Source of the DNA: Eledone cirrhosa
Taxonomy: Eukaryota
Length of the DNA: 64,000 bases
NCBI GenBank assembly: GCA_964016885.1
Contig: OZ024741.1
Coordinates: forward strand, 174,158,001-174,222,000
Direction: 5' to 3'
Shown: positions 19,850 to 60,535 of the stretch, piece by piece
Position numbering within the stretch: the first letter of the stretch is position 1
Layout of the letters: each line of letters opens with the position of its first letter
The notes under the pieces: generated by a model
The model's input: only the letters and a program-made list of their open reading frames with translations
Databases searched by the model: none
Told to the model about the DNA's origin: nothing
Made by a program: the position numbers and the translations under genes

Positions 19850-19990
19850 ATAGGAGTAAGTAAGACCCCGACGGCTGAGCTCAGCCGTCGGGGTCTTACT
19901 TACTCCTATTTCCCACTCTACTACACGAAGTATTGAGTACTTTGGTGCGTTATGGTCCACCTGGTTCCTTACCACTTTTCCCTCGCTATA
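19850..19990 (+). mobile_element. Fold-back mini-element (PLE pseudo-LTR derived) with a perfect 60-bp palindrome
   Basis: Palindrome 19850-19909 is centred on tgagctca. The tail is nearly identical to 40860-40940. Flanked by (TA)n. Confidence 0.75.
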
Positions 19991-25893: not shown

Positions 25894-26023
25894 TATATAT
25901 ATAATATATATTAAAATAACATATATCATCATCATCATCTATATTAAAATAACATATATATATATAATATATATTAAAATATATATATATATATATATTA
26001 GAGGTGTAACACACAAGTTATTA

Positions 26024-26364
26024 TATATTGGTAAACGGAATAGAAAATGCTGACAAATTGTTCACAGTTGAAAAATGGTTTAATTAGGAATAAAAGAGTA
26101 TTAGTGATTGTATGGGTTAGTATTCAGTTGTGGTTTTAAGTTTTTAAGTTTTTACCGGTTGCGCATTTCTAAATGCTTCAAACAGCACGGACACTCTATC
26201 TCAAAATTATTTTTGAAAAGCATTTAGAAATGCGCAACCGGTAAAAACTTAAAAACTTAAAACCACAACTGAATACTAACCCATACAATCACTAATACTC
26301 TTTTATTCCTAATTAAACCATTTTTCAACTGTGAACAATTTGTCAGCATTTTCTATTCCGTTTA

Positions 26365-26372
<8 letters not shown>
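26024..26372. repeat. Fold-back with ~155-bp perfect inverted arms (26024-26178 / 26218-26372) in (TA)n
   Basis: Arms read directly; the inner ends carry a hammerhead-like gcattt-ag-aaatgc-GCAA-ccgg-TA. Confidence 0.9.
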
Positions 26373-26418
<46 letters not shown>

Positions 26419-29118: not shown

Positions 29119-30419
29119 GAATTCTACAGAACTAAAACTGTTTCATTTGTATGAAATCATCAAGAAACAGTTCTAGTCCTAGTCCTGTAGAAGTTGTTTC
29201 CAACACCACTCAGGAAACTATATGTATATATATATATATTTCGTTTCTGAATTTGTTTAGCAAGATTCTTTATCTGAAAACGTGTGTTGAAACCGATATT
29301 GTTATGCTTTGGGAGGGTCAGGTTGCCAATAAGAAACACACGCACCAGTTGCTTTCACACCAATTTATTATAAGTTAAATTTATAAATTTAAGAATTTAT
29401 AAATTTCCGGTTGGTTGGTTCCATAACCAGACGATTGTTCATATATTGTCAAAGTTCTTTCGTCACACATTCTGTGACCTCTTCAGTGACTGGGGATTCT
29501 TTTCTTTGTTTTTGTGCCTCTCCTTTGTTCTGTCCTATGCCATCTTGTTTTTGTGTGTGTTGTGTGCTTAGTTTGCGCATGTGTTACATCCGGGTGTCTG
29601 TGTGTGTTTATATTTGTTTATTTATTTGTTTATTTACATGTTACTGGTTAGTTGTTTATTCTATGTGTGTGTGTGTGTTTTCATTTTGTCCTTAATTGTA
29701 AGTTGTGATGTTGCTATTCCATTCATGTTTTCTATTTAATTTTGGTTGGAGTTCATTTATGTTTATTGCCTCTGTGATTTGTCTAAACATTGCATCTTTT
29801 CTGTGTGTACATTCTATTTTTATTTCTATGTTCTCTAATTTAGTAAAGAATCATCTGTACCCCACCAACACGCTAAAATAGAACATAAGGGTAAATTAGT
29901 GAACATAGAAATAAAAATAGAATCTACACACAGAAAAGACGCAATGTTTAGACAAATCACAGAGGCAATAAACATAAATGAACTTCAACCAAAATTAAAT
30001 AGAAAAATGAATGGAATAGCAACATCACAACTTACAATTAAGGACAAAATGAAAACACACACACACATAGAACAAACAACCAACCAATAACATGTAAATA
30101 AACAAATAAATAAACAAATATAAACACACACAGACACCCGGATGTAACACATGCGCAAACTAAGCACACAACACACACAAAAACAAGATGGCGTAGGACA
30201 GAACAAAGGAGAGACACAAAAACAAAGAAAAGAATCCCCAGTCACTGAAGAGGTCACAGCATGTGTGATGAAAGAACTTTGACAATATATGAACAATCGT
30301 CTGGTTGTGGAACCAACCAACCAACCGGAAATTTATAAATTTAATTTATAATAAATTGGAGTGAAAGCAACTGGTGCGTGTGTTTCTTATTGGCAACATG
30401 ACCCTCCCAAAGAATAACA

Positions 30420-31200: not shown

Positions 31201-31204
<4 letters not shown>

Positions 31205-31385
31205 TTAATATAGATGAGATTCTACAGGACTAGAACTGTTTCATTCTTTAGAAATCATCTGATGATTTCTAAAGAATGAAACAGTTCTAGTCCTGTAGAA
31301 TCTCATCTATATTAAAACTTTTATACTCTGCAATGTATTGAGTACCTTACTTACTGTGGTTACCTCCGATTCAACCCGGAATAAC

Positions 31386-31621: not shown

Positions 31622-32048
31622 TGATACATGACATACCCTGAGATGTTAAATGGTTAAGATTTAATCAAGGTAGTGATTAACCCAAGAAAAATTTAACATT
31701 TATACCCTAATAATGAGAAAATGCAAAAATGTAATAAAATCAACAGAGAAAGTGCGAGTAAGAAAAATGTTGCTTAATGGAACAGTTAAATAGATATTAA
31801 GATGTATGATACTATAATTTTTGAATAAAGGGGGGTAATAAGCTGAAGGAGTTTTATTTTTGCCGAAAGTTAAACGGTTAATTTTGAAAATATTTAATGT
31901 ATGTACTATAGAGTGAAGGTTCGAGATATTGGCTATTTTTAAATTAAAAAAATTGCTGGTTATTTATATATTAGTTTTATAAATTCTATAAGTGTGTTAA
32001 CATTTCAAAGCTTCTGAATTTCATGTGGGTAACATTTATATATATATA

Positions 32049-35470
<3,422 letters not shown>

Positions 35471-39945: not shown

Positions 39946-40744
39946 TGTATGTGTGTAGGTATGTAGGTATATATGTATGTATGTAGGTATGTAGGTATAT
40001 ATGTATGTATGTAGGTATGTAGGTATATATGTATGTATGTACGTGCGTATGTATGTTTCAGTGATTGAAAAACATTTCTTCTCCAAAAGTTTTTTATTAT
40101 ATTGATATTATCTACTTGTTATTTGTATATTTGTCTTTGTATTTCCAATAGAACTTTCAGTCATCTTCATATCTACTTTTAGCTATTTTAGAAATTTTTT
40201 ATTTTTGTTCCTGTATTTATCTACAAACCTTGAAAATAAACTTGAACTCTTGACACAGGAAACGCCACCTAAATCTACACACATACACACACACCTCAGA
40301 ACAACAAAATGCCCTATGGGCCTTTATTCTGAATAGAAAAGGAACTTTCTATTTAAATGAGTAGAATTTTCTAGTAAATCGATTGAATCCTGATCTCTTG
40401 AACCTCACCTCCACCTTCACTACTCCACTTTCATAAATAACAGTTATATAAGAAGAGATTTTGAGAGAAAACTCTCATATGTTCTAACTGCCCACAGAAT
40501 ATAAGAACAAACTTTTTTAATATCTGATAAGATTGCTATACCAACCTAGTAATATTTGATAAAACTTAAATTAATTTAATGAAACAATTATAAGAATATT
40601 TATTCTGTCGAATTAAAGAAAAAAAAAGAATTGTTAAATATACAATATACTTCTGAGATTTTCCACTTTTACTTTTTACCCATAATCTTCGATTTGCATG
40701 GAACTTTACCCCCTTTTTCAACTATATATATATATATATATATA

Positions 40745-40940
40745 TAGGAACGAGTAGGACCCCGACGGCTGAGCTCAAGCCGTTTCGACGGCTAATTCTG
40801 TCCAGAATTAGCCTTCGAAACGGCTTGAGCTCAGCCGTCGGGGTCCTACTCATTCCTATTACCCACTCTACTACCCTAAGTATTGAGTACTTTGGTGCGT
40901 TATGGTCCACCTGGTTCCTTACCACATTTCCTCCGTTATA
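40745..40940 (+). mobile_element. Fold-back mini-element with a hammerhead 3' half (same family as 19850-19990)
   Basis: Arms 40745-40800 / 40803-40858. Reads cagaattagccttc-GAAA-cggc-ttgagctca-gccg-TC-ggggtcc; (TA)n flanks. Confidence 0.8.
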
Positions 40941-52000: not shown

Positions 52001-52519
52001 TATATAATAAAATGTGGAGAGGAAGCACACGAGTTAGGATATATATATATATATGAAAACAAGGAGAAAGAGACGATTATTAAGAAGAAAAATATATTTT
52101 TTTCCTTTTTTGTTTCTCTCTCTTTTTTTTCTGGGTTAGAAAATGATTAAAACGAAATGTTTTACTTTGTGTGAAGTGTTAAGGTATTAGTTGATTTATT
52201 TATTATTTAACAATGGTATTTATTTATCTATTTATATATTTAATTATTGTCTATTACCGGTTTCAACATTTTTATGCATTATCAAATAATAGTGAAATGT
52301 ATTAGACAATAATTAAATATATAAATAGATAAATAAATGCCATTGTTAAATAATAAATAAATCAACTAATACCTCAACACTTCACACAAAGTAAAACATT
52401 TCGTTTTAATCAATTTCTAACCCAGAAAAAAAAGAGAGAGAAAAAAAAAAGGAAAAAAATATATTTTTCTTCCTAATAATCGTCTTTCTCCCTGTTTTCA
52501 TATATATATATATATATAT
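52001..52519. repeat. Fold-back with ~215-bp inverted arms (52040-52253 / 52293-52519) and a hammerhead-like loop
   Basis: Arms read directly. The loop on the minus strand reads ttgataa-tgcat-aaaa-atgtt-GAAA-ccgg-TA-atag; tcgtgtgcttcc at 52021-52032. Confidence 0.85.
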
Positions 52520-54857: not shown

Positions 54858-57710
54858 TTAAAATAACAGTGAAACAAAAATAATCAATCTGTGAACGCAA
54901 AAGTAAATATTTCGAAAAACGTTGCAACCGAAGGAAGACAAGAAGACGATATTTTGGTCCGTGGAGACGTTCCCTGGCAATGAACGGGAAAAAAACGAAG
55001 ATAATACGTCATTATTTGGAGCGCGGAGAACAATTACACGCAAAGACAAAACCACGTTTATGGTATAAATGAAGTCGTGGAATAATATTCTATTTAGGTG
55101 GTTCGTGGAGACGTTCCCTGGCAATGAACGGGGGATACAAGCGAAGATAATAGTCATTATGTGTATCGATGAGAACAATTACGCGCAAAGACAAAACCAC
55201 GTTTATGGTATAAATGAAGTCGTAGACTAAAATTCTATTTAGGAAACCGAATGATTCTCGGCTTCAGAGTTAAGAATAATGTAAAAAATTACAGAGGTTA
55301 TTGAAATCAACAATAAATAAATACATACATGCACGCATCCATATACGTACACACACATGCATACGCGAACACACCCGCCATAGGTTTGCATATACAAGCA
55401 CGTACACAAAAACACGCGCACACATATAAAAACCTGCGCAACACCTGTACCCGCACACATACGAACATATACACCAAATACACATAAAAATATATTAAAT
55501 ATATATATATATGTGTGTATGCGTGTATACATATAATTATATAAACGTATATAAATATATGCACATAAATACGTATATAACGTGCACACACATACCTACA
55601 GGTAAAAACACATATGTTAACAAAACGTACGTCAACCAAAACACAAAGTGAGCATATAAACAGAACCTGCATACTTGCAAACTCGCATAGACACACAAAC
55701 GCAAAATACTCGTATACACAACCATATACACATGTACCAGTATATATAATATAATATATACACCTATAACAAATACAAACAAATATACGTACGAGAAAGT
55801 ATACGTACCTTCACAAAACATACAGGTAATATATACTTACCTGCACAAATAAGTAATGGTATAAACATAACATATACTTAGCTACCACATCAAGACGTAA
55901 CTTATCCGCGTATTGTTCGTACTATCCGTTAGGGTATAATATGGGGCTGTAATGCAGGAAAGTTTTATGCAATTTATGTTTACAAGCCGAAATTGCCTCA
56001 GATTTTTTGTTTAAGATGTGGTCTTTGGCGTAGAGTATTTCCAGGTCTTCAGCGGCGCAGAGGTCACATGGTCTTTTATTTTCGTTATACGATCTAGCCT
56101 TAACTAGGATCTCCCAGTGTAACCTATATTGGGTGTGGTTGTCTTTTAGACTCCAGATATAAGCTGAAAGTGATGTCATATTCCTTCTTAAAGGGTTAAG
56201 AAAAGAATGGGTATGCATGTAAAGACGCTGCTTGAATCTATTGGCGGTTAACTCTATGTAGGCCCTACGAGACGTGGGTGTTTCAACATTACATTTGTAG
56301 ACAATGTTACTGGAGAGGCATTTCCCGGATAGGGGGCAGTCAACCCGATTCCTACAATTACAGTTAGTACTAGCTACAGGGTTGCACGTGTTCCTACGGT
56401 TAGGTAATTTAGCTAAATTTGAAGCAGTGATGTTATGTGCAAGGTTAGGAGTCGTAGAGTAAGAGAATTTAATGTTTTTTCTATTAAAAATTTTATTATA
56501 TTTATGCGCTGGTGGGAAATGCTTGTTAATAAGGGAGAGAAAGATCTTAGCTAATGGTGTGGCCACCTCCATATTATATGGTGGGTTATACCATATAATG
56601 CGTCGGGATTTATTTTTCCTAGGTCTATGCTCATACTCGGTATATGCTACCTTATCGACAAATCCACTACGAGCAAGAGCTTCATTGTAATATGTGGAAT
56701 GGTCGGTGAAAATATGCTCGTTTGTAGATAGACGGGAAAGCCTAAAAGAAACGTTTCTTACCAGGTTCTTGGTTATGCTGGCAGGATGGTTAGAATGCTT
56801 ACTTATCTAATTAAGCGTATCATTCGGCTTTCTATACGGGTAGTGCAAGCCATTCGACAAATTGAGGGTAACGTCGAGGTAATTAACGACCGAGAGCAGG
56901 GCCGGATTTAGATTTGATGAAGCCCTAAGCTATTTGAGATAATGAGGCCCTTTATATGTCCAGATGTCCTATGTCAGTGACAAATTATCGCTGTTTTTTG
57001 TGTGGGAGCCCTAAGCTATAGTTTGTTTAGCTTATACGTAAATCCCACTCTGACCGAGAGGTTGGCCTCAACCTGTATGGAGAGGTTGAAGCCTTTAAAG
57101 AAGGCAGTAAGTTCTTTTCTGAACCTGTCGCAAGCGCGTGGGCCGCACTTTGTCATCGTCAAAAGACCGTCATCATGGTACAAACCACCGCCCACGTTGA
57201 GGATTTCTTCCTTGATAGAGAAAATAAGGAAAAGGCCGATAAGATCAGTAACCTCCGCAGAATCGCGTCGAATGGGGTAGTATTAGATTTTTTAATCCAA
57301 ATAGAGTCGTCTAAATTAATCACCGACTTACGGGTATTGAGGATGACATCAACTTCGAAATCCTTAACCACCGTGAGCGTTTTAGCGAAATTAATAGCTC
57401 TTAGAAGAAGTGGTAAAGTGATGGAGGAGGAGTAATTATTGATATCGAATTGGATAAAACGGCAATGTTCCTTGTTGCATATGCCGTTGAACCAATCAAT
57501 CACCGCGAAAGAATTGTTCCACAGTGCAAGAGGGGCCAAACTTCTAATTTCAGGTATAATTCTATCTAAAATCCTTTTACTAAGTCTACCTAAATCGGAC
57601 TTCGTAGGGTTAATAAGCCGAATAGAGGGGTTGTTCGGGAAATTGGATTTGTGATCCTTCAGGGTAAAGTGGGGAGAAATAGGGTCCAGAGGTTCAGTCC
57701 GGTCCAGGAT
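54858..57710 (-). mobile_element. Penelope-like element 3 (Naiad type, same family as element 2), 5'-truncated
   Basis: Colinear with 32049-34740. ORF 55922-56572 is the GIY-YIG part; extra partial ~140-bp repeat unit; MITE insertion. Confidence 0.93.
56897..57052 (+). mobile_element. hAT-type MITE (156 bp)
   Basis: 8-bp TSD accgagag (56889-56896, 57053-57060). TIRs cagggccggattta / taaatcccactctg. The empty site is visible at 34067-34074. Confidence 0.9.
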
Positions 57711-60535
57711 ATAAATGGAAACTATATTTATAAAACCATATTTATTCTATTATATATATTTCAAGGGTACCAAAACTTTGGTATGCACTCATCAGATAAA
57801 ATACAAAGTTTGTTTTATAAATAGTGACATACCCAGGAATCAGACCTTAACGGTTTAAGTTCCGTTTGGATAGTGAAAGGAAAGAGGGAAAAGGGGAAGA
57901 AAAAAAAACATATATTTCAAATTATTTTGATGAATATGCAAATGAAGTTGAAGCATAGGGCTGAAAAAATCGTTATTTTTAGATGCTAGGTAGATTTAAA
58001 TAATTATTAGGATATATATATGTAGGAAGAAGAAAGAGAAGCTTCTATTAATAGTATTACAGTGTACCAAAGTTTTGGTACCCTTGAAATATATATAATA
58101 GAATAAATATGCTTTTATAAATATGATTCCCATTTATTAATATCATTGATATTATACTCCAGAAAACTTGTCGAGTGCTTCGAATCTGTTATAAATATAT
58201 TTGTTGAATTACCAACAAATTAAATATCCCTTTGCTTATAAATAGCTCCTTTAAACTATAACAGATTGCAAAAAATTAATAATGGAATTCTTTAGGATTT
58301 CTTCTTTAAAGGATGTACACTTACCTAAAAATAAGGAATATGTAAAACAACTCATAGAAAAATCAGACTCCTTCATAAGAAGACTTAGATGGTGCGCTTT
58401 CCATTTTGATAAGAAATCGGAAAACAAAATAAATAAATCCAAGTATAATTTTGATCTTATTTTCAAATCAAGGAAAAATCCACCTTGCAACAAACTACTA
58501 GCCGAATTTGAAAATGAAATAATCTCCATCATACAGAACGTTAAATTCAAAAGGAACCAATTTATTGGCCAGGAGTACCTCAAAGGCCTCAAAAACAAAA
58601 TAGACAATCTAGAAAAAACAAAGAAGATCCTTGTAAAATCGCACAAAACCAATAATCTATATGGTATTGAAAAGGACGCGTATAATATCCTAATACTGAA
58701 GGAACTCAGAAAAAACTATAAAAGGACATCAAATGAAGATCTTTCAACCCTAAATAGAGAAGCTTCGGAAATTATTTATAAACTAGGCATTCAAAATAAG
58801 ACAGAACCCTTTATACATAGAAAACCGAAGATTAATTTGAAGGACCATAAAAGAAATTTTGAAGTAGAACTACCAGTCAGACTCATCGCACCATCTAAAT
58901 CTGACTTAGGCATAATTAGCAAACATATACTAGATAGGATTATTCCAGTACTTAAAGAAAAATCACACCTTAAACTATGGAACGGTACTAATGAAGTAAT
59001 AGATTGGTTTACAGACATAAAATTAAAACATAAGAAAAAATTTATTCAAATGGATATTGCAAATTACTACTCCTCTATTACTCCTAGCTTACTTAATAAG
59101 GCACTTATCTACGCTTCTAAACATACAGACTTATCTAGTGATGAAATGAATATCATTCTAACAGCATGTAAAACCCTAATAGAATTTAATAACCATCTCT
59201 GGACAAGTGCTGATAGACAAAACAATTTTGATATTACTATGGGATCATCTGATTCAGCTCAAGTAACAGACCTCGTTGGATTATTTATTATTAATGTACT
59301 GCATAGAAACATGCCAGAGATGACCGGAGGTTTATATCGTGACGATATGTTACTTTTAATCGAAAAACATAGCAATAGTGAAATTGATAGGAAAAAGAAA
59401 TCCATCATACAGTTTTTCAACAACTACAACCTTAAATTATAAATCGAGAATAATTATAAAATCGTTAACTTCTTAGATGTAACTTTAAACCTTATCTCAG
59501 GTCTTTACTATCCTTTCCATTAAATTAATGAAAATCTAAATTACGTAAGCTTCAACTCTAATCATCCTAGAAATATAAAAAATACTATTGTCAATAGTAT
59601 CCAGCAACGAATTTCACGCATCTTTGCTAATAAAAATATTTTTGATAATAAGGCAGAATATTACAATTAGGCTTTACATAGATCTGGATACTCGAATAAA
59701 ATTAAATACTTAGATAACAATAACATACTAAATCATCCTAAAATTCACTATAATAATAATAAGCAATTCAACTTAAATAGTAAACCAAACTAAAAAACTA
59801 GAACTAGAAATATTATTTGGTACTCTCCCCCATTCTCATTAGGTGTTAAAACACCTGTAGCAAAACTATTTTTCAAAGCACTGGATAAGTATTTTCCTAA
59901 AGCCCACAGATACCACTCTATTTTTAACAGACACACTATCAAACTATCTTACTCTACTACTATGGACATAGCACAAAATATAAATAGAATTAATAATAGA
60001 AACTTAAATTTAAACCCTAACCAAACAAACCAAGATAACAATAATAATATTTCTAATAACAATATTCATACTAATAATAATAGTACCGTTTCTAATAACA
60101 ACAACTCCCTAAAATGTAACTGTAGAATTGAATCAAACTGCCCTTTACAAAACAGTTGCTTAGATAAAAACTTAATATATAAATGCACAGTAAAAACTAG
60201 AGACAAAATATTTAACTATATAGGTGCCACAAAATTCAAAGAACGCTGAAATAATCACAAACATACATTTAATAGGTCCGATAAAACATCTTCCACATCA
60301 TTTTCACATCTAATTTGGTATTTAAAGGACAATAATATAGACTATTCAATATCTTGAGGAACGATTTCGAAAGCACCCTCATACCGAAATATGGCCCTCT
60401 CAAGAATCTGTCATTTGTGTATCGAGGAATTTTTTTTATATACTTAACTGTCAAAATTCTATTAATTTAAAAAATGAATTATTCAGTTCTTGCAGACATC
60501 GCCAAAGAACCACTTTCCGAAGTATTTTTAATCTA
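57711..60535 (+). mobile_element. Penelope-like element 4 (Naiad type), near full-length, with in-frame stops
   Basis: ORF 58282-59442 has IRRLRW, LKDHK..P.RLIAPSKS..G.ISK, MDIANYYSSI, MGSSDSAQVTDLVG, GLYRDD. It continues through NFLDVTL, SNHP, WYSPPF, CNCR..CPL..C..IYKC..YIGAT and SSCRH. An inverted pseudo-LTR lies upstream. Confidence 0.93.
57743..57803 (-). ncRNA. Type I hammerhead ribozyme in the inverted pseudo-LTR of element 4
   Basis: Minus strand tattttat-CTGATGA-gtgcataccaa-agtt-ttggtaccctt-GAAA-tatata-TA-atagaata. A partial + strand copy lies at 58061-58137. Confidence 0.78.

Follow-up and report, generated by a model that had tools for sequence, protein, structure and literature searches.

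Hairpin copies of a Hydra-clade Penelope-like element suggest twin priming, run-off at RNA 5' ends, and head-to-head joining of two cDNAs

Two fold-back copies of a Penelope-like element (PLE) were found in the window, a 64,000-nt stretch of the Eledone cirrhosa genome, and comparison with copies elsewhere in this genome suggests that both arose by twin target-primed reverse transcription (TPRT), run-off of the cDNAs at RNA 5' ends, and head-to-head joining. This reading is drawn from the insertion products, and we give it a probability of about 0.74. Each strand of a cut (TA)n target would prime one cDNA, and the two cDNAs would start at fixed internal sites of the RNA, +58/61 (site 2) and +138/141 (site 1). 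They would then run off the RNA 5' end, either at +1, the likely transcription start, or at +42, the predicted ribozyme cut. After some trimming, the cDNA ends may be joined by template jumping of the reverse transcriptase (RT) or by host microhomology-mediated end joining. The signs of twin priming are fixed outer ends, symmetric inner ends, and added bases on both arms. Priming from two start sites, followed by run-off and joining, would explain the inverted 5' ends of PLEs. The initial annotation of this DNA had attributed the same structures to nascent cDNA snapping back at ribozyme helices; its observation was right, its mechanism is wrong, and the true pattern is more informative.

A recheck of the sequence found the palindrome and the hairpin reported by the initial annotation to be real and as described. 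Positions 19850-19909, in copy A, form a perfect 60-bp palindrome with TGAGCTCA at its center (19876-19883), and positions 40744-40859, in copy B, form a hairpin whose arms have two mismatches, with TC at 40801-40802. The folding z scores of the two hairpins against shuffles are -20 and -14, and (TA)n surrounds both copies. The tails had been called near identical; a common part of 121 nt does exist, but its identity is only 90.9%, and the two copies therefore belong to different subfamilies. In copy B the arms end at +5 and +2 and share 1 nt of microhomology, and in copy A both arms end at +28, with 8 nt in common. Copy B is likely a near-complete run-off pair, and copy A is likely a trimmed pair annealed via the 8-nt loop-III palindrome, arising either at insertion or by later deletion. 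Neither copy contains the hammerhead core box, in agreement with the earlier statement that both lack CTGAnGA. The hairpin of copy B, with its TC apex, had been interpreted as stem II of the ribozyme, but the 5' strand of that stem is the inverted arm and not native helix II, so the stem is present by construction. Both copies lack the native helix II 5' strand, which is located 25-36 nt farther upstream. The features are listed in Table 1, where element numbering takes as +1 the A located 6 nt upstream of the helix II 3' strand.

Table 1. Positions of the arms and ribozyme parts of the two hairpin copies in the window
Feature	Position	Strand	Remarks
Copy A (19850), inverted arm	19853..19883	-	Element +58 to +28; outer end at initiation site 2, adjoins (TA)n
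Copy A, junction	19876..19883	.	8-nt self-complementary loop III; microhomology common to both arms
Copy A, direct arm	19876..19986	+	+28 to +138, then (TA)n; holds hammerhead 3' half, predicted cut after 19889, site 2 at 19906, and tail to site 1
Copy B (40745), inverted arm	40747..40800	-	+58 to +5; outer end at site 2, adjoins (TA)n
Copy B, direct arm	40800..40936	+	+2 to +138; starts one base inside main run-off point (+1, likely transcription start)
Copy B, hammerhead 3' half (type I)	40805..40844	+	Core and 5' strands missing
Copy B, helix II 3' strand	40805-40816	+	
Copy B, GAAA	40817-40820	+	
Copy B, helix III with palindromic loop	40820-40838	+	
Copy B, predicted ribozyme cut	after C 40839	+	+41/+42
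Copy B, helix I 3' strand	40840-40844	+	
Copy B, PLE tail	40857..40936	+	About 80 nt between site 2 and site 1; on one arm only

The family to which both copies belong (family 1) is abundant: the 3.0-Gb genome contains 20,557 exact matches to a 27-nt tail motif, there are roughly 15,000 short fold-back copies, and 4,670 arms extend upstream into the core region. A tandem insertion (L151) has a unit of 3,118 bp and carries a single 719-amino-acid ORF (L151:4580-6739), in which RT and GIY-YIG-type endonuclease motifs were identified by eye. These are RWR, DKT, CNC-x5-C, and CNLC..E..N..CKH, and the endonuclease is C-terminal, for which reason an assignment to Naiad was dropped. A Pfam search of the 719-amino-acid ORF returned no match. 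Family 1 has the structure of a PLE, with tandem units, an inverted 5' copy, and a tail at one end; the earlier assignment to the PLEs is thus borne out by the RT/endonuclease ORF, the tandem units, and the tail on one arm. Assigned by motifs and published description rather than by RT phylogeny, family 1 is classed as a new, ordinary endonuclease-bearing (EN+) PLE of the Hydra clade. Its novelty lies in the mechanism recorded by its copies, not in the element itself.

In the accessible part of the description by Craig et al. (2021; PMC8557442), members of the Hydra clade have, like family 1, a single ORF with RWK-like and DKT motifs, a CxCx5C linker, and CxxC and CxH around conserved E and N residues. 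They likewise have (TA)n targets, in which family-1 insertions also sit, a hammerhead, a tandem and inverted structure, and a tail at one end. Family 1 differs from that account in unit length (3.1-3.5 kb versus <3 kb), in its hammerhead (a U3-A8/C3-A8 core variant with a long helix II versus a canonical one), in its tail (about 80 nt versus the 30-40 nt quoted for PLEs), and in that most copies are hairpins of about 200 nt.

Further insertions of related kinds occur nearby. Three more Hydra-like PLE copies, at 32042-35262 (with long inverted ends), 54870-57746, and 58303-60429 of the window, encode proteins with 41-57% identity to the family-1 ORF, and a putative PLE RT stretch with an IRPIVS motif can be read on the minus strand at about 2100-2200. 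An inverted pair at 29409-30322 has 271-nt arms, each with a minimal CTGAAGA...GAAA hammerhead-like motif, and belongs to another PLE family. Hairpin insertions in (TA)n are also found at 26022-26374 and 52039-52517, with arms of 157 nt and 219 nt and spacers of about 40 nt. At several loci (L048/L049, L023, L024, and L047) newer copies are inserted in the (TA)n flanks of older ones, and such nesting results in hairpin clusters that mix several subfamilies and families. In one sequencing run from another organism (X5, organism B), three low-depth contigs are at least 99% identical to family 1 and may represent contamination or a shared sample.

The initial annotation had recognized a ribozyme in the element, and un-inverted copies can indeed be folded into a type-I hammerhead. 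The minimum-energy fold is a three-way junction (z of only -0.55) in which the helix I 5' strand, a 7-nt core, helix II, GAAA, and helix III with its palindromic loop follow one another. Helix II pairs -36..-25 with +7..+18, and the predicted cut lies between +41 and +42. The fold has the features of the type, namely, three helices around the core, G10.1-C11.1, GAAA, and UH. Standard pairs fill 94% of the pair cells in 12 copies versus 13 to 56% when the structure is slid, and compensatory base changes were absent among these 12 copies, which are 91% identical (a young family). The sequence ggacccc-CTGAnGA had been predicted upstream; a stem I partner, ACCCC, is there, but none of the 100 core matches listed has the canonical CTGAnGA (CUGANGA) core. 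The cores at 30 loci are TTGAGAA (16), TTGATAA (6), CTGAGAA (5), TTGAAGA (2), and one other, and by sequence the family-1 core is a U3-A8 variant of the hammerhead. Rfam gave no hammerhead match within the window at the gathering threshold and none in two longer copies at an E value of <=1. The subfamily with C3-A8 cores has fewer +42 ends, which is too weak a difference to claim that the core variant affects cleavage.

The U3-A8 form is a published variant of PLE hammerheads (PMC4209133). Those of the Schistosoma Cercyon PLEs, as far as the available text of Cervera and de la Pena (2014; PMC4209133) goes, resemble family 1 in core covariation, a palindromic loop III, an extra base at the 5' end of helix II, and opposite-strand pairs 100-700 bp apart. 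Unlike in Cercyon, helix III of family 1 is a full 5-bp stem. For the Cercyon elements, cleavage, circles, and more-than-unit copying were proposed (PMC4209133).

The anatomy of family-1 copies was established from the first 100 tail matches along one contig (C1), which were not chosen by structure and in which both arms were aligned; 13 rows were corrected by eye, and 2 rows of an older subfamily were excluded. Hairpins number 76, and in 22 copies no inverted arm lies within reach. The inverted arm starts at site 2 in 72 of the 76 hairpins, and direct arms end at about site 1, with a few running on into the element. Rare exceptions to this rule of one site each are a hairpin with site 2 at both ends (L227) and another with site 1 at both (L043). 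Since (TA)n lies on both sides, any target-site duplication or deletion by which the two nicks could be recognized is hidden. Inner ends are concentrated as well: 107 of the 148 ends between -36 and +58 (about 70%) fall in -5..+7, compared with 42 in the best 12-nt window of 5,000 uniform shuffles, and none of 152 ends falls in -24..-6. The mapping of apices proposed in the initial annotation thus gives a strongly nonuniform distribution, but the pile-ups are at -5..+7 and +42 and not at native-loop junctions. Junctions show microhomology in 32 of the 76 hairpins (at least 3 nt in 9), are blunt in 17, and carry insertions in 27; 8 of the 12 longer inserts contain short templated insertions. 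Two observations were set aside as evidence: subfamily mismatch between arms, which is rare (8/71) and mostly involves single bases, and an A/G difference between arms in the first 30 matches, once read as a sign of two templates, which concerns a CpG site in matches chosen for A.

Inner ends at +42 make up about 2% of arms and coincide exactly with the base that follows the predicted cut. Both arms end near helix I at 459 sites (46 in the control), and among those listed, 49 distinct sites were counted by hand. Both arms end exactly at +42 in 25 of the 49 and one arm in 7, while 3 or 4 sites are seemingly unrelated. The 25 comprise 19 with a spacer of 1-6 nt, mostly added A, and 6 that are blunt and formally ambiguous. 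The scaled estimate of such concordant sites is about 234, versus 5-7 expected from independent arms. Single arms adjoining (TA)n give the same picture, with 30 of 54 distinct arms, a few of which are neighbors, starting at +42 out of 10 positions (P = 1e-16), or 24 if possible CpG decay is excluded. Pairs of a +42 arm with a +1-class arm are rarer (9 clear and 16 ambiguous per 100 rows listed of 587 matches). From its position, +42 is very probably the 5' end left by hammerhead self-cleavage. The concordance of the two arms at +42 indicates that ribozyme cleavage of the templates took place in vivo and that the two cDNAs ended on one kind of RNA end; that they read the same RNA end, in one molecule or in two that were co-cleaved, seems reasonably likely. 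A family-1 transcript with its start at +1 would have no core and be incapable of self-cleavage, in keeping with cleavage as the minor class. The accessible parts of PMC4209133 and PMC11167929 describe in vivo cutting by PLE hammerheads as unproven, and Frangieh et al. saw no reads that end at the ribozyme cut site of their element (PMC11167929), a point against the present reading. In vivo evidence is absent for Cercyon according to PMC4209133, whereas in family 1 genomic ends mark the cut site.

The variety of junctions, including the 19850 type, could also stem from deletion inside full-length hairpins after insertion, a reading that concerns the origin of trimmed copies and not hairpin formation and that we regard as possible but rather unlikely. 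Junctions in loop III and stem III do lie at direct repeats created by the inversion, and the inverted arm of one copy (L041) has a deletion between such repeats. Later deletion cannot, however, yield sharp +42 ends with added bases, nor can it yield single arms starting at +1 or +42 beside (TA)n.

Ten long inversions, chosen solely as close opposite-strand pairs, have the same outer ends as the hairpins, with site 1 on one arm and site 2 on the other in all 10. The tail-less arm is the longer one in 6 of the 10, and in 6 of the 10 each arm covers sequence that the other lacks. Of 62 direct arms extending to +7, only 7 go on upstream; once a whole unit has been copied, back to the 5' untranslated region (UTR), 24 of 25 arms run seamlessly across +1 into the next unit (best-scoring matches, several of which belong to the same arrays). 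Whether +1 is passed therefore depends on the template, which could be a multimer, a circle, or an RNA able to take a jump at its 3' repeat. These rates are unexplained by a single capped linear template, and a second template pool is needed. Two copies (L107 and L162) ran off near +1 and then jumped into the ORF, and a third (L007) jumped onto an A-rich end in the 3' UTR. Head-to-tail arrays of at least 4 units with a period of about 3.53-3.54 kb (G000:C1:437200368-437211051 and C1:91476525-91487242) are candidate rolling-circle products. Long inverted PLE insertions would then be the same event on templates without an end at +1, that is, a read-through multimer, a circle, or a 5'-to-3' jump.

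An AT-rich, TATA-like stretch precedes the main stop, at +1, by 27-31 nt, and the stop has the context TT-AGT or TC-AGT, in agreement with the initiator consensus (pyrimidine-A-G). A hand count of 69 distinct sites found a single base between (TA)n and +1 to be G in 9, T (templated) in 7, C in 2, and A in 1, and no reference arm has G at -1. At hairpin arm ends the next cDNA base is A in 62, C in 20, G in 15, and T in 3 of 100 listed (hand count, in which hairpins may appear twice), and three listed hairpins have the extra G on both arms. The extra G suggests a cap. It is not clearly commoner before +1 (13/57) than before +42 (4/30), where a G run adjoins, and a test of 11/45 against 4/30 was not significant (P = 0.38), so that the cap reading is of moderate strength. 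Taking together the TATA-like box 27-30 nt upstream, the pyrimidine-A-G initiator, and the extra G, +1 is probably a capped transcription start. Transcription of Penelope begins at an initiator inside its repeat, according to the available text of PMC2377424. A splice-acceptor reading of the +1 boundary was rejected, as the ends keep AG and have no common upstream exon.

Twin priming might also be combined with a stop of another kind, in which structure or a bound protein at the apical part of helix II blocks the RT at +1, or a nuclease cuts there at a pyrimidine-A step. In the minimum-energy fold, +1 coincides with a bulge of a predicted apical extension of helix II; the ends of this region are spread over -5 to +1 instead of falling on a single base; the extra G is not significantly commoner than at +42; and long arms cross +1 freely. 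A roadblock should, however, act at every pass, and the passing rates of 7/62 and 24/25 speak against this. The second family, described next, also counts against a roadblock, which we consider improbable.

At 31201-31380 of the window there is a perfect palindrome with 59-bp arms that belongs to a second TA-targeting family (family 2), which has a canonical CTGATGA hammerhead. Its tail has 15,745 matches, and the outer end of its inverted arm has two sub-sites. Among 70 loci examined, 22 were scored as main-subfamily hairpins, 22 have no inverted arm, and 26 rows (other subfamilies or too short) were left unscored. The arm ends fall in -3..+8 in 36 of 44 cases (32 before four mis-seeded rows were corrected by eye). 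The stop is 30 nt behind TATAAATA in 2 of 4 reference arms and 32 and 37 nt behind it in the others; it lies 5' of helix I and of the entire ribozyme, at the same distance from a clear TATA box as in family 1. The stop thus follows the promoter and not the helices, and family 2 is a stronger argument for a transcription start at the stop than the extra G is.

A one-ended TPRT has also to be weighed, in which host repair would fold back or hairpin-cap the cDNA end with a repair polymerase, copy it back, and join it to the upstream (TA)n via TAT microhomology at site 2. Site 2 does have 3 nt of homology to (TA)n, and the templated insertions at junctions resemble the signature of polymerase-theta joining. 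Against this, inverted arms hardly ever begin at another TA step of the tail (one site accounts for 72 of 76), site-2 ends also occur alone, without a tail arm, and the site-2 arm is the longer one in 6 of 10 long inversions. This course of events is very unlikely.

The mechanism of the initial annotation, in which nascent cDNA snaps back at ribozyme helices and self-primes, so that the inverted arm is copied from the direct arm, is highly implausible and already largely refuted. Snap-back at helix II or III predicts that the native loop is kept and that the inverted arm is a subset of the direct arm, and the model fails on junction, arm length, loop origin, and containment. A native-loop junction was found in 0 of 76 hairpins. 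The inverted arm reaches further 5' in 34 of these, the direct arm in 27, and both equally in 15, and 6 of the 10 long inversions noted above have arms of which neither includes the other. Junctions within the strands of helix III occur at 158 sites genome-wide; in 30 of them that were examined, loop III derives from the tail arm in 16 and from the other arm in 13 (11 clear, 2 by eye), and 1 copy has no tail. Moreover, a fold-back loop cannot be made of the 0-1-nt spacers at +42, the inverted arm has a fixed outer end, and the family 2 stop is shifted relative to the ribozyme. What the model would account for is the agreement in subfamily between arms (63 of 71 copies), as expected from arm-from-arm copying, and the templated inserts, which show local fold-back synthesis. 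Helix symmetry also yields microhomology at the 158 sites and at 135 others of the 19850 type, joined through the loop-III palindrome (0.7% of copies). Outside the main cluster, helix strands hold 29 of the 40 ends between +8 and +58, versus 49% expected (P = 0.004), an excess inflated by decay of the main cluster and by the +42 class. The claim that apices lie at ribozyme helices therefore stands for the microhomology at a minority of joins, which the helices supply, but the helices do not set the stop.

An assembly or library artefact is practically negligible, since, although fold-backs are a known product of long reads and amplified libraries, the ends here are element specific and fixed across thousands of copies, and the depth step at +1 and the (TA)n ends at both sites recur in short-read contigs from two runs (possibly including the source sample).

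Twin priming with run-off has partial parallels in other systems. In L1 twin priming, reportedly described by Ostertag and Kazazian in 2001, the second target strand is said to prime a second cDNA, giving an inverted 5' part joined by microhomology, with a variable second priming site and nonoverlapping arms. In family 1, in contrast, neither start site varies, and the arms are copies of one RNA stretch, which makes the product a hairpin. Retroviral minus-strand strong-stop DNA also runs off the RNA 5' end but is primed by tRNA and made once, whereas the family-1 cDNAs would be made twice and from target DNA. The RT of R2 runs off the 5' end, where the bases it adds are mostly A, and is able to jump to a different end, but it starts at the RNA 3' end (PMC8857657 and PMC13000458, as far as their accessible text goes). 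A further parallel is PAc, the Poseidon element of Anolis carolinensis, whose protein cleaves both target strands and starts their extension at two internal sites (Frangieh et al. 2024; PMC11167929). PAc shares with family 1 two internal RT start sites bracketing the tail, an AT-rich target, and uncleaved RNA as the main template (PMC11167929). Its sites lie in the ORF and show no strand preference in vitro, whereas in family 1 site 1 is nearly always paired with site 2, and the available part of the PAc account contains neither an explanation of inverted ends nor a description of run-off hairpins (PMC11167929).

The origin of the inverted 5' ends, tandems, and one-sided tails of PLEs is stated to be open in the accessible parts of PMC8557442 and PMC11167929, and PMC8557442 attributes inversions and tail to cleavage properties of the endonuclease. 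Neither run-off hairpins nor genomic ends at a PLE ribozyme cut site were found in the literature searched, which included few subscription papers and no supplements. The hairpins join tail, inversion, and ribozyme in one model with base-level predictions. Their ends are a sequence-only way to read RNA 5' ends from insertions, and the +42 pile-up would be genomic evidence for in vivo cutting by a PLE hammerhead. On even odds, PLE integration is intrinsically two-ended: one ribonucleoprotein, with an RT from the group most closely related to telomerase RT, would prime both target strands at two fixed points close to the RNA 5' end and make paired strong-stop cDNAs on the same RNA. Joining of these would give a hairpin, and passing the end, by a circle, multimer, or jump, would give long inverted and tandem copies; the hairpins would then map where transcription starts and be proof that a variant hammerhead cuts in vivo. 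If this is true, the read-out from genomic hairpins, of which there are tens of thousands, should work in any PLE-rich genome.
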